64,000 nt of DNA from a virus. Taxonomy: Duplodnaviria; Heunggongvirae; Uroviricota; Caudoviricetes. The stretch lies in the IMG/VR virus record IMGVR_UViG_3300032167_002310. One strand, written 5' to 3'. How positions within the stretch are numbered: position 1 is the first letter of the stretch; every line of letters begins with the position of its first letter. The notes under the pieces were generated by a model. That model saw only the letters and a list, made by a program, of their open reading frames with translations. It had not been told where the DNA came from and did not search any database. Made by a program: the position numbers and the translations under genes. Shown in pieces: positions 56,668-63,751 of this stretch.

Positions 56668-57618
56668 TTAAATAGTTGAATCTGACCAGAAATCATAGTC
56701 TGGGAAATAGCTATTATCACCAAAAATATCGAAATAAATGTTGATATAAACATCTTCCCAAAATTCTGGCTTAATTAAATATGGTACCAATCTCAAAGGA
56801 GCTGCCGCAGTAGAAATACGACCGCTAATTTTGAACTCTGACCATCCAAGAGCTTCATATGCCGCAATTTCAGGTGGAGTAATCTTATATTGAGAATAAG
56901 TTGCTTCATGGAAAGGATTATCTTTTGCAAAACCCGTGCAAATTACTTCTTCAAAAGAAACATCTTCCCATAACTGTTCCATACCTAATTTAGTATAATG
57001 CTGATAAATTCGAGGGCAATCAATGGGACAGGCATCTGTACAAAGTAACTCTACTCGATGCTTTAATTCCTGAGGAAAGCCTTGAATAAAATCAATATCA
57101 TTAACCTTTTTACGAGGTACAACAATACGAGGATATTTATCCAATAGCGCGACATAATCTTCAATTGTGCTACAAGTGTTTTCGCAGCCAGTTGCACCAA
57201 CAATACTTCTTGTTACATTGGCTTTTGGATATTTATTGCGAATATAATCCTCAAGACACTGAGCAGAAACTAATACTTCTAATTGCTCATATCCTAAAAT
57301 CTCAACCGCAACATCTAAAATGCAATTAGCATATCTGTCGTATACATCAGTTTCCTGTAACATAGGATTAGTAAAAGTTAACTGAATAATAATACCTTGG
57401 TCTTTATACCACTGGAATACATTTCTCATGATAGGTTTTGCGGGCGGATATTGAATCCAAGTAGACCCTCCATTCCAAATACAGTTAGGGAAACAACCAA
57501 AAATATGAGTAATTTTTGCGCCATCTACCCAACACTGTGGATAATACTTTTGGAACCATAAGAGTCTTTTATACATAACGGCATTTTCATAAAAGCCTGG
57601 ACAATAAAAGTTCGCCAT
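56668..57618 (-). CDS. hypothetical Cys-rich protein (316 aa), own promoter, adjacent to YcaO/radical-SAM operon
   Basis: ORF with CPIDCPRIY and CTDAC motifs; no confident family. Confidence 0.5.
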   Translation of the reverse strand: MANFYCPGFYENAVMYKRLLWFQKYYPQCWVDGAKITHIFGCFPNCIWNGGSTWIQYPPAKPIMRNVFQWYKDQGIIIQLTFTNPMLQETDVYDRYANCILDVAVEILGYEQLEVLVSAQCLEDYIRNKYPKANVTRSIVGATGCENTCSTIEDYVALLDKYPRIVVPRKKVNDIDFIQGFPQELKHRVELLCTDACPIDCPRIYQHYTKLGMEQLWEDVSFEEVICTGFAKDNPFHEATYSQYKITPPEIAAYEALGWSEFKISGRISTAAAPLRLVPYLIKPEFWEDVYINIYFDIFGDNSYFPDYDFWSDSTI

Positions 57619-57648
57619 AAAAAATCTCCTTTTTCTCTTATTACTATA

Positions 57649-57677
57649 ATTATACCATATTTTTAATTAAAAATCAA
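57649..57677 (-). promoter_or_regulatory. conserved promoter copy
   Basis: TTGATT-N17-TATAAT. Confidence 0.7.
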
Positions 57678-57678
57678 T

Positions 57679-58074
57679 TTACCAATCTTCGTTTTGCAAA
57701 TCTTCAACTCGACATCTCTCTTCATAAATTGCCTCTTGCATAATGGTTTGTGCCCAAGGGGTTAAAGCTGGACGGCTATTAACCCTTGTGCGAATTATAT
57801 CAGAAGGATATCTATTATACAAGAAGTATCTTTCCATTCTGCCATCGGAATAGAAAATCAATCTTTCTTTCCAAAGAAGAGGAGTTGTACCTTCCATATC
57901 TTCTGCCATAACAGCGATATTGTCTACTGGCTTAATAATTTCTTGAGTGAAAGAATCAATCTTTCCACCATTAGCAAGCCATTCTTTTGTGATAATAGTA
58001 AAATTTTCATCAGCATTACCAATGCCATAGGCATCGTCAACAAAAATTTTATCTAAATTCTGCCATTCGCTCAT
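57679..58074 (-). CDS. hypothetical protein (131 aa), last gene of YcaO operon
   Basis: ORF, start overlaps upstream radical-SAM gene end. Confidence 0.45.
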   Translation of the reverse strand: MSEWQNLDKIFVDDAYGIGNADENFTIITKEWLANGGKIDSFTQEIIKPVDNIAVMAEDMEGTTPLLWKERLIFYSDGRMERYFLYNRYPSDIIRTRVNSRPALTPWAQTIMQEAIYEERCRVEDLQNEDW

Positions 58075-60884: not shown

Positions 60885-61889
60885 TTATGGTTTATAACTA
60901 TTCATAATATCAATAACCGTTACATTAGATTTAGCCTGGTGAGAATTAGTGTTACTATGAGCACTGTTTGAACAGGTCTGTGAGTTAGTGACATTGGAAT
61001 TTGTTTGGCTGTGAGCACTATTAGAACAAGTCTGACCATGTGTACTATGGCTTCTGCTCTGGCTGTGCGCACTATTAGAACAACCCTGGCTATGAGCACT
61101 GTTAGAACAAGTATTACTGTTATATCCATTACTATTGGTATTACCATTGGTTCCGTTTGAACAAGTATTACTGTGACTACCATTAGTTCCACAAGTACCA
61201 TTAGATTTATACTGATAAGAACATTGGTCAGTATAGAATCTACTACTATGATGCTTCAATCCATTGCCACGTGCACCGTAGGAGTTGCTACCATTAGAAC
61301 AAGATTGACCATGAGAACTATTGCTATTGGTATTGCTATTATAGCCGTGGCTATTTGTATTTCCATGAGTACCATTAGAACAGGTGTTACTATGGCTACC
61401 ATTGGAACAAGTGTTGCTATTAGAGCCGTTTGTACAAGTGTTACTATTTGTACTATTGGAACAAGTATTACTGTTTGATGTGTTAGAGTTATTATTGCTA
61501 TGAGCACTATTAGAACAAGTTTGGCTGTTTGTTCCATTAGAATGATTCTGGTTACTGTGAGTATAAGAGTTACGACACTTAATAGTTTCCAGTTTAGCAA
61601 TAACTGCTTCTAACTGGTTACCCGTATTCGCATAAATGATTGTACCTATTCCAACAGTAGAATATGTTGGGTATAAGTTTGCATTTGAACCCAGGTAACT
61701 ATCTGCTTTCATGGCATTTAATTTAGCCACAAGATTATTTACATCGGAGGCTTTTGCGGGAGTAGCAGAAGGAACAGCAATCGTAGCCATACCTCCGCCA
61801 TATTTCGTAATTACAGAATTAAGTCTATCATACCAATTTTTAATTTGCGCGCTGTATAATAGTCTATCGCCGCGACTTACTGTAGGCAT
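60885..61889 (-). CDS. 334-aa Cys/Ser/Asn/His-rich repeat protein (putative substrate of the YcaO/radical-SAM enzymes)
   Basis: N-terminal about 110-aa non-repetitive domain then about 25 degenerate repeats of (S/T)CSN(S/G)(A/T)(H/N)S containing about 25 Cys. Confidence 0.6.
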   Translation of the reverse strand: MPTVSRGDRLLYSAQIKNWYDRLNSVITKYGGGMATIAVPSATPAKASDVNNLVAKLNAMKADSYLGSNANLYPTYSTVGIGTIIYANTGNQLEAVIAKLETIKCRNSYTHSNQNHSNGTNSQTCSNSAHSNNNSNTSNSNTCSNSTNSNTCTNGSNSNTCSNGSHSNTCSNGTHGNTNSHGYNSNTNSNSSHGQSCSNGSNSYGARGNGLKHHSSRFYTDQCSYQYKSNGTCGTNGSHSNTCSNGTNGNTNSNGYNSNTCSNSAHSQGCSNSAHSQSRSHSTHGQTCSNSAHSQTNSNVTNSQTCSNSAHSNTNSHQAKSNVTVIDIMNSYKP

Positions 61890-61893
61890 ACTG

Positions 61894-63699
61894 TTACTCC
61901 TCCTTTACGCTAAAATATGCTTTTACAATATTATCGTAAATATCACTATTGTAAAAGGCAGAAGTTGGATAGAAATAACAATCCATCAATGCAATGTCCA
62001 TATTAGGTACATCTTCAATTTGAGGATAAGTTAATTCTGTACCAAACAAAGTTTTGAAAATATCTTTAATCTCTTTATTGCTGTATCCATTACACTTATA
62101 TACCATAATAGAAGCATATAATTTCTGGATGCCATAAAGATAACTCTTTGGATTAACAGTTGGAATTTGACCATTATTTCCATTATTTAACATTTGCTCA
62201 ACAGAGAACATTGGTGAAATACCTTCTCCATTAAACAGACAGCTATCATAAGTTGACAATAATAAATCGCCAAAATGTTCATAATCATTTGTATTAGCAG
62301 ATAAGTTTCTAAATAAGTTATACTCATTATAAAGCTTATCATAATACTCTTGGTCACCAATATGGTCAGTTAAGTCACAAATTAAAGAGGTTAAATTTTG
62401 CATTCTTTCAAACATTATAAGCAATGCTTGAACAATAATAGGACTAATGAAACGAGCATTCTTTTCACGAATTTGTTCAATAGAACAAAAATCTGGTCCT
62501 AAAATATAAACAGCTGCCATCTCATTTGGGATAGGACTGCAATTATAATAAAAGAATTCATAACCCAAATCTTTGGAGAGCTTTTTATAGTAATCCAATA
62601 AATTCACATTTGTACTATCAGGATTTACGAACACTTTACTTTCATATGCCAAAACATCATAAGGAACATACTCTACTTTTTCAGTAATAAATTCATCATG
62701 AATATAATTAGCTTGAGAATAATTGTTTCCATAGAAATTCAAAACAAAAGATGCTTTATTTGTTTTTGCAGGAACTTCAAAACCAGAGCAATACATTCTC
62801 ATATTATCAATACCTTGATATAACTCAGTTAAAATTCTTTCAAATGCGATATCAAAAACTGGAAAGGCACTGAAGTTTACACGGCAATTACAACCAATTT
62901 TATCAATTAACAAACCAGCTAATACTGGCATGCCAAAATTATGGGATAAATCCATAACAATAAAATCAAACTCTCGATTAACGATATTACTTACTGCTTC
63001 TCTAAAATCTTCTCTTGTAATTGTTTCAAGGTCAACCGCACGATAATGCTCTTGTGGCTGACTATAAAATAATACAGTTCCCTTGCGCTCAAAAAGCTCG
63101 GACAAACCTTGATTCAAAGCTTCTTCTTCTGTATTACCAGCCGCCATACCATTACTACCAGTAGCACGCTGCATAATACTTGGGTCTAAATACTTAACCT
63201 TTGTGGGGTCAGAAACGCTTGTAAAAGGAACGCCGATTGCGCCATCAGGATAATTGATTTCAAAGAACTTCTTCATATTTTCATCAGATTTCAAGAATGT
63301 TCTATAATATTGGTCTAAAATATGATTCTCAATAACCATATCATAAGCATCAATCTTCTTTTCTTCTGGACAATATACATAGTCTTCTCTCAAGGCTCTA
63401 ATTTTTCTTTGGAAGTAAGGATTGTTAATATATCCTACTTTATTGGAAAAACGCTCGAACATTTCACTGTAGCCGCTGGCCAAAGCGAATTCTTGAGTCA
63501 TACCCTTGCCATTACTACCAAGAACCTCTAAGTTATTGGAAGAAATAGTTACATGGCAAGTCCAAGTCCCAATTTCAGTCTGGAACATTGTATGTCCGAT
63601 TTTAAATCCACTATTCTCGAAAAATGATTTAATTAAATTGACTGTATCCATCGGACTACGGTCTTTATATTTATTCGATAATAGATTCTCTGACATCAT
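61894..63699 (-). CDS. YcaO-domain protein
   Basis: 601 aa; YcaO N-terminal signature GSNGKGMTQEFALASGYSEMFERFS and ATP-binding region; C-terminal extension. Confidence 0.75.
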   Translation of the reverse strand: MMSENLLSNKYKDRSPMDTVNLIKSFFENSGFKIGHTMFQTEIGTWTCHVTISSNNLEVLGSNGKGMTQEFALASGYSEMFERFSNKVGYINNPYFQRKIRALREDYVYCPEEKKIDAYDMVIENHILDQYYRTFLKSDENMKKFFEINYPDGAIGVPFTSVSDPTKVKYLDPSIMQRATGSNGMAAGNTEEEALNQGLSELFERKGTVLFYSQPQEHYRAVDLETITREDFREAVSNIVNREFDFIVMDLSHNFGMPVLAGLLIDKIGCNCRVNFSAFPVFDIAFERILTELYQGIDNMRMYCSGFEVPAKTNKASFVLNFYGNNYSQANYIHDEFITEKVEYVPYDVLAYESKVFVNPDSTNVNLLDYYKKLSKDLGYEFFYYNCSPIPNEMAAVYILGPDFCSIEQIREKNARFISPIIVQALLIMFERMQNLTSLICDLTDHIGDQEYYDKLYNEYNLFRNLSANTNDYEHFGDLLLSTYDSCLFNGEGISPMFSVEQMLNNGNNGQIPTVNPKSYLYGIQKLYASIMVYKCNGYSNKEIKDIFKTLFGTELTYPQIEDVPNMDIALMDCYFYPTSAFYNSDIYDNIVKAYFSVKEE

Positions 63700-63722
63700 A
63701 AAACTCCTTCCTTTTTAATTAT

Positions 63723-63751
63723 ATTATAACATAAATTTTATGTTAAGTCAA
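63723..63751 (-). promoter_or_regulatory. conserved promoter copy (TTGACT variant) driving the YcaO operon
   Basis: TTGACT-N17-TATAAT; no further copy until 57649, so 63699..57679 is one transcription unit. Confidence 0.65.

Follow-up and report, generated by a model that had tools for sequence, protein, structure and literature searches.

A candidate RiPP-like system of a large phage, with a whole repeat protein as the probable substrate

Introduction

What do a YcaO protein and two radical S-adenosylmethionine (rSAM) enzymes act on when a phage encodes them next to a long repeat protein? The question is raised by positions 56668-63751 of IMG/VR virus record IMGVR_UViG_3300032167_002310, a 64,000-nt stretch of Caudoviricetes DNA to which we refer, at its full length, as the window. 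A preliminary description made from the letters had proposed a phage-borne modification cluster with the repeat protein as the likeliest substrate, resembling the systems for ribosomally synthesised peptides with post-translational modifications (RiPPs) and in particular the thiazole/oxazole-modified microcins (TOMMs). The first part of this proposal is retained here. The genes are linked, enzymes and repeat protein co-diverge, the layout of the repeat protein is that of a precursor, and the enzymes belong to the rSAM and YcaO superfamilies. The TOMM-like part is abandoned. We conclude that the locus probably encodes a RiPP-like system for the maturation of an entire protein, with the 334-aa repeat protein (Rep) as its substrate. 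The two radical SAM genes are called rSAM_A and rSAM_B, and a 316-aa gene p316.

A constant core of Rep and two radical SAM enzymes

Six open reading frames (ORFs) make up the unit, in the order YcaO, Rep, rSAM_A, rSAM_B, a small protein and p316 (Table 1). The gaps between them are 4, 15, -8, -26 and 60 nt, a strong Shine-Dalgarno site lies ahead of each, and the genes are translationally coupled. The ORFs of the preliminary description were found where it had placed them, all six on the minus strand, and the genes that it listed stand. It had left p316 undescribed, and this gene belongs to the system as well.

Relatives were gathered by exact-protein look-ups, IMG/VR scans and a scan of species-representative genomes, and searched with iterative hidden Markov models (HMMs) built from each window protein. 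This gave 51 loci (numbered with the prefix L) and 42 distinct modules, each defined by rSAM_B. A single-sequence scan of IMG/VR with YcaO returned nothing, whereas an alignment-based scan found relatives. Comparison of the modules shows what appears to be an invariant core of Rep, rSAM_A and rSAM_B in the same order and on the same strand, with YcaO, the U32-like p316 and glycosyltransferases as accessories. rSAM_A lies directly upstream of rSAM_B in 41 of the 42 modules. Rep was recognised by HMM upstream of rSAM_A in 25, and about ten more have a divergent ORF of the same layout in this place. Within about 9 kb, YcaO was found in 18 modules and p316 in 21, eight of which carry at least two p316 copies. 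Of the five-gene block that the preliminary description had put forward for a search in other phages, the Rep and rSAM part is thus constant, but YcaO is not.

YcaO is located immediately upstream of Rep in seven modules (window, L001, L002, L006, L008, L019 and L046), and in L005, L011 and L016-L018 it occurs with no Rep-rSAM_A-rSAM_B triad inside 10 kb. In every locus inspected, rSAM_B is followed by a small ORF of 92-147 aa. Glycosyltransferases are often found near the module, and an rSAM-GT2 fusion of 689-695 aa goes with the aromatic-rich Rep flavours described below (Pfam-confirmed in L029, sequence-inferred in L012). Two or three complete modules with different repeat flavours can be present in one genome (L003, L028, L030, L045 and L047), and each module then has a separate Rep and rSAM pair (L003, L028).

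The 42 modules all come from large phages that have not been cultivated or from regions of prophage-like character binned with Bacillota. The system is abundant in uncultivated phages of 120-240 kb linked to Bacillota. All matches in genome assemblies were to Bacillota as well, ten of them on contigs of metagenome-assembled genomes that are mostly phage-sized. The L029 module is located on a contig of 429 kb from the isolate Clostridiales Family XIII bacterium PM5-7, with a terminase gene as its neighbour. Four of the operon proteins recur as exact copies on 28 public contigs, the longest of 220 kb. Among 50,697 deposited phage records, none showed DNA-level similarity to the window or encoded rSAM_B or the Rep N-terminal domain.

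Architecture of Rep

Rep is a basic protein (pI 9.0 overall, 9.5 for the N-terminal domain) containing 65 Ser, 60 Asn, 36 Thr, 27 Gly, 17 His and 14 Cys residues. As the preliminary description pointed out, it is far larger than a typical RiPP precursor. The folded N-terminal domain proposed there is borne out by AlphaFold2, which, when run with the family alignment, gave a three-helix bundle for residues 13-100 with a pLDDT (predicted local distance difference test) of 85-97. The details of the repeat had to be corrected: instead of about 25 Cys we counted the 14 above, 13 of them in the tail, and instead of octamers of the form (S/T)CSN(S/G)xxS the unit is a nonamer, with a period of 27 nt or 9 aa according to TRF and Cys spacings of 9 or 18.

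Following the bundle is a K-C-R-N strand, of which C105 and N107 are invariant in alignment A3 and K104 and R106 nearly so. AlphaFold2 pairs strand 103-112, which contains this motif, with the C-terminal strand 321-329 (VIDI), tentatively at a pLDDT of about 57, and predicts the roughly 210 residues in between to be disordered. Flavours 1 and 3 keep the T(I/V)DI motif of the C-terminal strand. For the nonamers, a beta-solenoid of RTX-like or antifreeze-like type was considered and rejected, as they have no supporting hydrophobic or Asp/Gly positions and AlphaFold2 gives no regular structure.

In an exhaustive search of 1.84 billion representative proteins, the N-terminal domain was found to define a family with 103 or more clusters (50% identity). 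In these 103 clusters it is always at the extreme N-terminus, in proteins of 160-370 aa. A word-index homology search with the domain gave nothing, among only six candidates. For its fold, no match was found in Pfam, PHROGs, BFVD or the PDB, either by profile or by Foldseek; matches to flagellin and Cas12i were weak (E >=0.1) and dismissed as noise.

Comparison with the nearest relative, L001, separates conserved from variable parts. The N-terminal domain (87% identical) and the central island (84%) align without gaps; in the arms, identity falls to about 55% and there are indels of exactly 9, 9 and 18 residues, all in whole 9-aa units. Each arm differs by +18 aa between the window and L001. 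Across the family the lengths of the two arms co-vary (r=0.59, p=3e-4, n=33, with a heuristic island call and related sequences), for instance 47/43, 74/70, 98/97, 118/113 and 149/155 aa. The match persists in L019, where the two arms use unrelated repeat units. Conserved islands of aromatic residues and Cys are present at the tail midpoint in flavours 1 and 3. Rep may thus form a hairpin or loop with two arms clamped at the base, a model that combines the island call, the related sequences and the moderate-confidence strand pairing.

The tails of the family are hypervariable low-complexity repeats, composed of 18.6% Asn, 15.7% Ser, 13.9% Gly, 12.1% Thr, 6.1% Cys and 5.5% His. At least four flavours were distinguished: Cys/His/Ser/Asn (as in the window), Tyr/Arg/Ser/Asn, Ser/Asn/Gly/Thr/Lys and Phe/Tyr/Trp-Asn-Ser. 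The preliminary description had emphasised Cys. Across Rep orthologues, however, Cys makes up 0 to 14% of the tail, and only 0-2% in many, and is therefore not the unifying feature. Cys, His or aromatic residues reach at least 6% in 91 of 92 tails. Positional preferences were flavour-specific only, namely T-C-S-x-G and S/A-H-G-Q/T. The hypervariability of the arms suggests an interface under diversifying selection, as in adhesion, in escape from immunity or in conflict between microbes.

TAG is a sense codon in many relatives (L003, L006, L008, L010, L012-L015, L017-L019 and others); L003 alone has 42 in-frame TAGs across 10 genes. Among the module genes of such relatives, Rep is densest in in-frame TAG, with 16 per 1000 codons and TAG in 8 of 10 genes. 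Some neighbouring genes, among them the vault-like and DUF2828 genes, have none. Recoded stops cluster in late structural and lysis genes (10.1101/2021.08.26.457843), and the high TAG density therefore suggests that Rep is expressed late in infection.

The radical SAM pair

Both rSAM proteins carry the CxxxCxxC motif and have weak but consistent matches to rSAM and maturase HMMs, in line with the two radical SAM genes called earlier. In rSAM_A, C23/27/30 of this motif and the auxiliary C294, C312 and C417 are invariant. Its matches, which all stay far under cut-off, were N_Twi_rSAM (55 bits) and a large number of models for peptide maturases. In rSAM_B, C57/61/64 and seven SPASM cysteines (C327, 345, 391, 394, 400, 404 and 423) are invariant in 16 of 16 sequences. 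It scored 25 bits with TIGR04085 (cut-off 27), its SPASM region matches the models of the QhpD, PapB and SCIFF maturases, and CteB (5wgg) was matched as well. A SPASM domain had been assigned to both enzymes; the full seven-Cys signature is found in rSAM_B, but rSAM_A with its three auxiliary cysteines is twitch-like. All rSAM HMM matches are to peptide or protein maturases, among others QhpD, PapB, SCIFF, CcpM and HxsB.

rSAM_A and rSAM_B have just the cluster motif in common, and the idea that they are recent paralogues was rejected. Identity among rSAM_A proteins is 46-81% within a Rep flavour and only 17-20% between flavours. The divergence of both enzymes follows the Rep flavour, a pattern that would be expected of an enzyme and its substrate. 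A search for defence systems with PADLOC returned just generic rSAM-motif matches to viperin models, and a role as such a system was rejected.

YcaO, p316 and the small protein

The assignment of the YcaO gene made earlier was upheld by PF02624 (E=1.7e-30), and the ATP/Mg motif residues are invariant across the family. The best NCBIfam match was NF040716 (YcaO_for_S12) with 117 bits against a cut-off of 700. The nearest solved structure is that of E. coli YcaO (EcYcaO; 4q84, E=1e-38, about 30% identity), the alignment being limited to the catalytic N-terminal half (residues 12-300). Like EcYcaO (pI 4.4), the phage protein is acidic (pI 4.75; family 4.75-5.7). The TOMM-like framing of the preliminary description did not hold. 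The SagD/TOMM model TIGR03604 gave 34.9 bits against a cut-off of 219. A proline-rich PxPxP C-terminus, reportedly introduced as a criterion for cyclodehydratases by Dunbar and co-workers in 2014, was found in 0 of 20 family members, and the window protein ends in ...KAYFSVKEE. Among the six operon proteins, Pfam and NCBIfam detected no E1-like/Ocin-ThiF partner and no flavin mononucleotide (FMN) dehydrogenase, and there was no match to TfuA or a RiPP recognition element (RRE). A ThiF gene was seen only in L005, 2.5 kb from a YcaO without triad.

Among the candidates scored, 319 YcaO homologues were found at E<=1e-10. Their length is about 590 aa, and almost all come from metagenomes, many of them on contigs of 100-200 kb. 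The sole match in deposited phage records, at 29% identity, is a gene of an E. coli phage record whose annotation reads host-type S12 accessory factor YcaO. EcYcaO directly thioamidates the ribosomal protein uL16 in its folded state using ATP, Mg and sulfide, without TfuA or RRE, and recognises tertiary structure with charge complementarity (pI 4.4 vs 11.2; PMC13063428, 2026).

For p316, a fold match points to the U32 family, and Pfam U32 (PF01136) gave sub-threshold matches in two of its relatives. The invariant residues are C197, C201, C227 and H207. Enzymes of the U32 family contain Fe-S clusters and have been linked to prephenate-dependent hydroxylation that needs no O2; two of them, UbiU and UbiV, work together as a pair (PMC10990095). 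The tandem p316 pairs of eight modules resemble this arrangement. In L029, one gene past the p316 pair, there is a gene for 3-deoxy-D-arabino-heptulosonate 7-phosphate (DAHP) synthase, with which the route to prephenate begins. The small protein has the conserved motifs W-E-x-x-N-x-I-F and Y-x-DG.

Proposed mechanism

The conserved N-terminal domain, the hypervariable arms and the rSAM matches, all of them to maturases, argue for a RiPP-like logic. Architecture and gene linkage agree with the general definition of a RiPP, a ribosomal precursor with recognition and core parts that enzymes modify and proteolysis sets free. In the proposed mechanism, the basic three-helix domain of Rep would act as a built-in, leader-like recognition module, and the KCRN and VIDI strands would clamp the base of a loop of about 210 residues, in which two arms surround the aromatic/Cys island. 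The twitch-like rSAM_A and the full SPASM enzyme rSAM_B would put many side-chain modifications or crosslinks on the repeats. In the window, the likely targets would be Cys and/or His of the T-C-S-N-G-S-H-S-N units, and the two arms may become stapled to each other by products such as thioether or His/aromatic C-C links. The small protein may serve as an adaptor. The acidic, co-transcribed YcaO would most plausibly thioamidate the Rep backbone in an ATP-dependent manner, since its nearest solved relative EcYcaO thioamidates a folded protein and since YcaO is acidic and Rep basic. Similarly, p316 would most plausibly hydroxylate ring side chains in an O2-independent, prephenate-dependent reaction. 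The product would probably be late, intact, heavily modified and protease-resistant, and could be attached to the virion or set free at lysis.

Several observations weigh against this reading. The rSAM and YcaO HMM scores are all far under the curated family cut-offs, so that reaction types are not transferable; the crosslinks, thioamidation, hydroxylation and biological role proposed above would follow from linkage and family resemblance. YcaO and p316 are each missing within about 9 kb in about half of the modules, which makes their tie to Rep weaker than that of the rSAM pair. Within Rep, the strand pairing has the low pLDDT given above, the arms are predicted to be disordered, and the arm-length comparison is based on a heuristic island call and related sequences. 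An aromatic-x-Asn or other positional motif common to all flavours was sought in the tails and none was found. No protease or exporter was identified, and the small protein gave no Pfam or PDB match and no PqqD or RRE signal. Concerning late expression, the operon is surrounded by early or middle-type genes beside a tRNA array, and the window uses the standard code, with no suppressor tRNA among its 37 tRNAs.

Alternative explanations

The main rival is a division of labour in which the rSAM pair matures Rep while YcaO, and possibly p316, targets the translation apparatus, for instance by thioamidating the host ribosomal protein uL16 or by U32-type hydroxylation of tRNA or rRNA. This would agree with the nearest characterised YcaO being a uL16 thioamidase and acidic as well (pI 4.75 vs 4.4), with YcaO occurring without the triad in five loci and the triad without YcaO in 24 of 42 modules, and with the action of the U32 members RlhA and TrhP on RNA (PMC10990095). 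Moreover, p316 is served by a separate promoter and directly adjoins the 37-tRNA array of a phage with a large translation-takeover gene set. However, only 4 nt separate YcaO from Rep in one promoter-to-terminator unit, and throughout its clade (7 modules) YcaO is immediately upstream of Rep. The likeness to EcYcaO, about 30% identity, is confined to the N-terminal 300 aa with the catalytic part, the 117 bits are far under the 700-bit equivalog cut-off, and p316 goes with the module in many arrangements distant from tRNA arrays. Charge complementarity fits this explanation and Rep as substrate alike, since Rep itself is basic. Altogether we consider a translation target of YcaO unlikely.

The remaining alternatives are each less consistent with the data. 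Rep could be a multi-core precursor, its arms being processed into numerous short peptides with modifications, such as bacteriocins or signals, which lysis would set free, with the N-terminal domain as leader and p316 as protease. Near-identical tandem units after a leader-like domain and a hypervariable core are typical of RiPPs, and the near-invariant KCRN junction could be a cleavage site. The U32 family was, in addition, first described as collagenases. Yet conservation extends to the central island and the C-terminal strand, the arms are length-matched and AlphaFold2 pairs the strands that flank them; the repeats hold no recurring cleavage motif between units, and neither an exporter nor a recognised leader peptidase was found. 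U32 proteins are now thought to be hydroxylases (PMC10990095), and p316 is missing from about half of the modules. Such a precursor thus seems quite improbable. Still less probable is a canonical azoline pathway, in which YcaO would cyclodehydrate Cys, Ser and Thr of the repeats before the SPASM enzymes crosslink Cys. Although the YcaO domain adjoins a Cys/Ser/Thr-rich tail, and Ser and Thr, at a median of about 27% of tail residues, would offer cyclodehydration substrates in all flavours, the low SagD score (34.9 vs 219 bits), the count of 0/20 for PxPxP and the missing E1-like/Ocin-ThiF partner and FMN dehydrogenase speak against it, as do the non-cyclodehydratase EcYcaO being the closest clade, the dispensability of YcaO for most modules and the variable Cys content. 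The lowest probability of all is given to Rep as an ordinary, unmodified low-complexity structural or scaffold protein (fibre, decoration or condensate), with enzymes acting on small molecules, DNA or RNA. Its tails do resemble prion-like or FUS-like domains rich in N/S/G/Y, glycosyltransferases are often nearby, and phage rSAMs also serve nucleic-acid modification (PMC8989533). But the order of Rep, rSAM_A and rSAM_B hardly varies, every module comes with a pairing of its own, enzyme divergence follows the flavour, and the SPASM/twitch rSAM matches are exclusively to peptide or protein maturases.

Comparison with known systems

Rep as the substrate of a RiPP-like system has its closest parallel in rSAM/SPASM RiPP systems with repeat precursors, such as PapA/PapB (freyrasin), SCIFF/CteB, CXXX-repeat, Cys-every-fifth, WprB and triceptide systems. 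As in these, the precursor gene is directly upstream of the maturases, an N-terminal recognition region is conserved next to a hypervariable, repetitive core, and rSAM_B has a seven-Cys SPASM domain. The Cys, His and aromatic residues of the repeats are the residue types crosslinked there (PMC11851443, PMC11499958). In contrast to these systems, the present one is phage-encoded, pairs two unrelated rSAMs and has no detected RRE, protease or exporter. Its precursors have 150-440 aa, with a folded three-helix domain, central island, clamp strand and length-matched arms, and the family HMM scores of its rSAMs are 10-30x under the cut-offs. For instance, sactipeptide and ranthipeptide models (PapB, CteB-type, RumMC, AlbA and StsB) gave 12-32 bits against cut-offs of 340-850, and the YhhB triceptide model 21 bits against 445, with no aromatic-x-N/x motif common to the tails.

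Two other systems are comparable as well. The rSAM/SPASM enzyme QhpD installs several Cys-to-Asp/Glu thioether crosslinks in a protein subunit, QhpC, the gamma-subunit of quinohemoprotein amine dehydrogenase, and not in a natural product of peptide size. QhpD is the top NCBIfam match of rSAM_B, at 29 bits against 453 and in the SPASM region only, but the phage locus has no dehydrogenase context and most Rep tails do not have the required Cys. The His-Xaa-Ser system (HxsA, HxsB, HxsC and HxsD) likewise combines a repeat protein, two different rSAMs and a small protein; to our knowledge, no function has been assigned to it. However, rSAM_A scores only 31 against 370 bits with TIGR03978 (HxsB) and 15 against 268 with TIGR03977 (HxsC), and Rep repeats are nonamers rather than His-Xaa-Ser.

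The phage YcaO is like EcYcaO in being a stand-alone, acidic protein of about 590-600 aa without TfuA, RRE or E1-like partner, and unlike it in that the gene next to it, transcribed together with it, encodes a candidate substrate; no substrate is encoded next to EcYcaO. For the U32 hydroxylases UbiU/UbiV, TrhP and RlhA, the known substrates are a quinone and RNA bases and never a protein, in contrast to the role proposed for p316.

A precursor served by rSAM/SPASM maturases is an already known logic. The unusual features are the protein-scale, constrained substrate, the obligatory pair of unrelated rSAMs, the EcYcaO-type and U32-type accessories and the home in large phages. In our literature search we met no account of YcaO and rSAM combined in a phage system, of the Rep family of precursors or of U32 proteins within RiPP-like clusters, in agreement with the preliminary description, which knew of no such phage system.

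If Rep is indeed matured in this way, RiPP-type radical chemistry would extend from short peptides to a whole, architecturally constrained, virus-encoded protein. Four uncharacterised families would be defined (the Rep N-terminal domain, two clades of rSAM enzymes and one of U32 proteins), YcaO proteins of the E. coli-type clade would gain a second, genetically linked candidate substrate and the prephenate-dependent U32 hydroxylases a first candidate protein substrate. The enzymes could then serve as tools for multi-site stapling of peptides or proteins. A far-reaching version, to which we give rather little credence, sees a class of enzymatically stapled proteins in large gut phages. Here a length-matched two-arm hairpin or loop on a three-helix base would be crosslinked in its arms by the rSAM pair, thioamidated by the EcYcaO-type enzyme, hydroxylated without O2 by the U32-type protein and glycosylated, giving a late, protease-proof fibre or adhesin, possibly on the virion surface. 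This would be the first protein substrate of a U32 enzyme and the first phage protein-backbone thioamidation.

Operon signals and genomic setting

The predicted promoter of the operon has 11 of 12 matches to the consensus plus the TG extension and is the top-scoring site in 55.8-64 kb, which bears out the promoter named in the preliminary description; the second one, ahead of p316, was found as well. The motif of this internal promoter occurs again at 56661-56633 and 56473-56445. Only the best-scoring sites are meaningful, because the 36 promoter-like sites observed in the region are no more than in shuffles (35.8). The window also encodes a full-length sigma70 of the primary type, with regions 1.1, 1.2, 2, 3 and 4 (32902-33927, minus strand), which is unusual in a phage and fits the sigma70-consensus promoters of the region.

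Table 1. Positions of the features of the operon and of two accessory loci in relatives
Feature	Position	Strand	Remark
Intrinsic terminator of preceding gene	63827-63858	-	14-bp stem, then T-tract; 5' boundary of unit
Sigma70-type promoter TTGACT-17-TGnTATAAT (TG extension)	63723-63751	-	predicted to drive operon
YcaO (601 aa)	61894-63699	-	E. coli-type, non-TOMM clade
Rep (334 aa)	60885-61889	-	candidate substrate
Rep N-terminal domain (aa 1-107)	61569-61889	-	predicted three-helix bundle, then near-invariant K-C-R-N strand
Rep repeat arm 1 (aa 108-202)	61284-61568	-	about 10 nonamers xSNTCSNGS/H
Rep central island (aa 203-234)	61188-61283	-	SYGARGNGLKHHSSRFYTDQCSYQYKSNGTCG
Rep repeat arm 2 (aa 235-321)	60927-61187	-	about 10 nonamers; length matches arm 1
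Rep C-terminal conserved strand and stop	60885-60926	-	NVTVIDIMNSYKP
rSAM_A (458 aa)	59493-60869	-	radical SAM, twitch-like auxiliary domain
rSAM_B (483 aa)	58049-59500	-	radical SAM/SPASM enzyme
Small protein (131 aa)	57679-58074	-	fast-evolving; possible adaptor or chaperone
Internal promoter TTGATT-17-TGnTATAAT	57649-57677	-	precedes p316
p316 (316 aa)	56668-57618	-	probable divergent U32-family TIM-barrel protein
rSAM-GT2 fusion / DAHP synthase entry	L029 2997-5066 and 12172-12990; L012 7139-9226

The window belongs to a large gut phage that encodes topoisomerase II, PhoH and endolysins. Directly downstream of the operon lie 37 tRNA genes (41237-56574), all on the minus strand and covering nearly all amino acids, the last of which is a tRNA-Gly (56502-56574). 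A small protein with a cyclic-phosphate-processing receiver domain (cREC_REC, E=2.7e-18) is encoded among them at 55903-56256 (minus strand), and the domain is also found near the L004 module. GC content falls to 32-36% over 56000-64000, compared to 40-48% across most of 12000-54000, and the low-GC operon region may be a compositionally distinct, possibly mobile, cassette.

Several further genes on the minus strand were recorded. At 15833-18601, 24936-25865 and 29909-32250, NAMPT and NAD synthase (salvage of nicotinamide adenine dinucleotide), Thg1, an RNA ligase and RNase T look like a set for RNA repair and tRNA maintenance. A flotillin/SPFH protein is encoded at 11730-13262, and a major-vault-protein-like protein (MVP shoulder and Vault_3) at 21602-24094. 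A DUF2828/DUF7788 protein is found at 38620-40179, and a DUF2828 gene is located just downstream of YcaO in L003-L005. Very long antisense mirror ORFs lie on the plus strand opposite minus-strand genes (11598-13268, 17132-18706 and 21866-24163); rather than being genes, they probably result from codon or strand composition.

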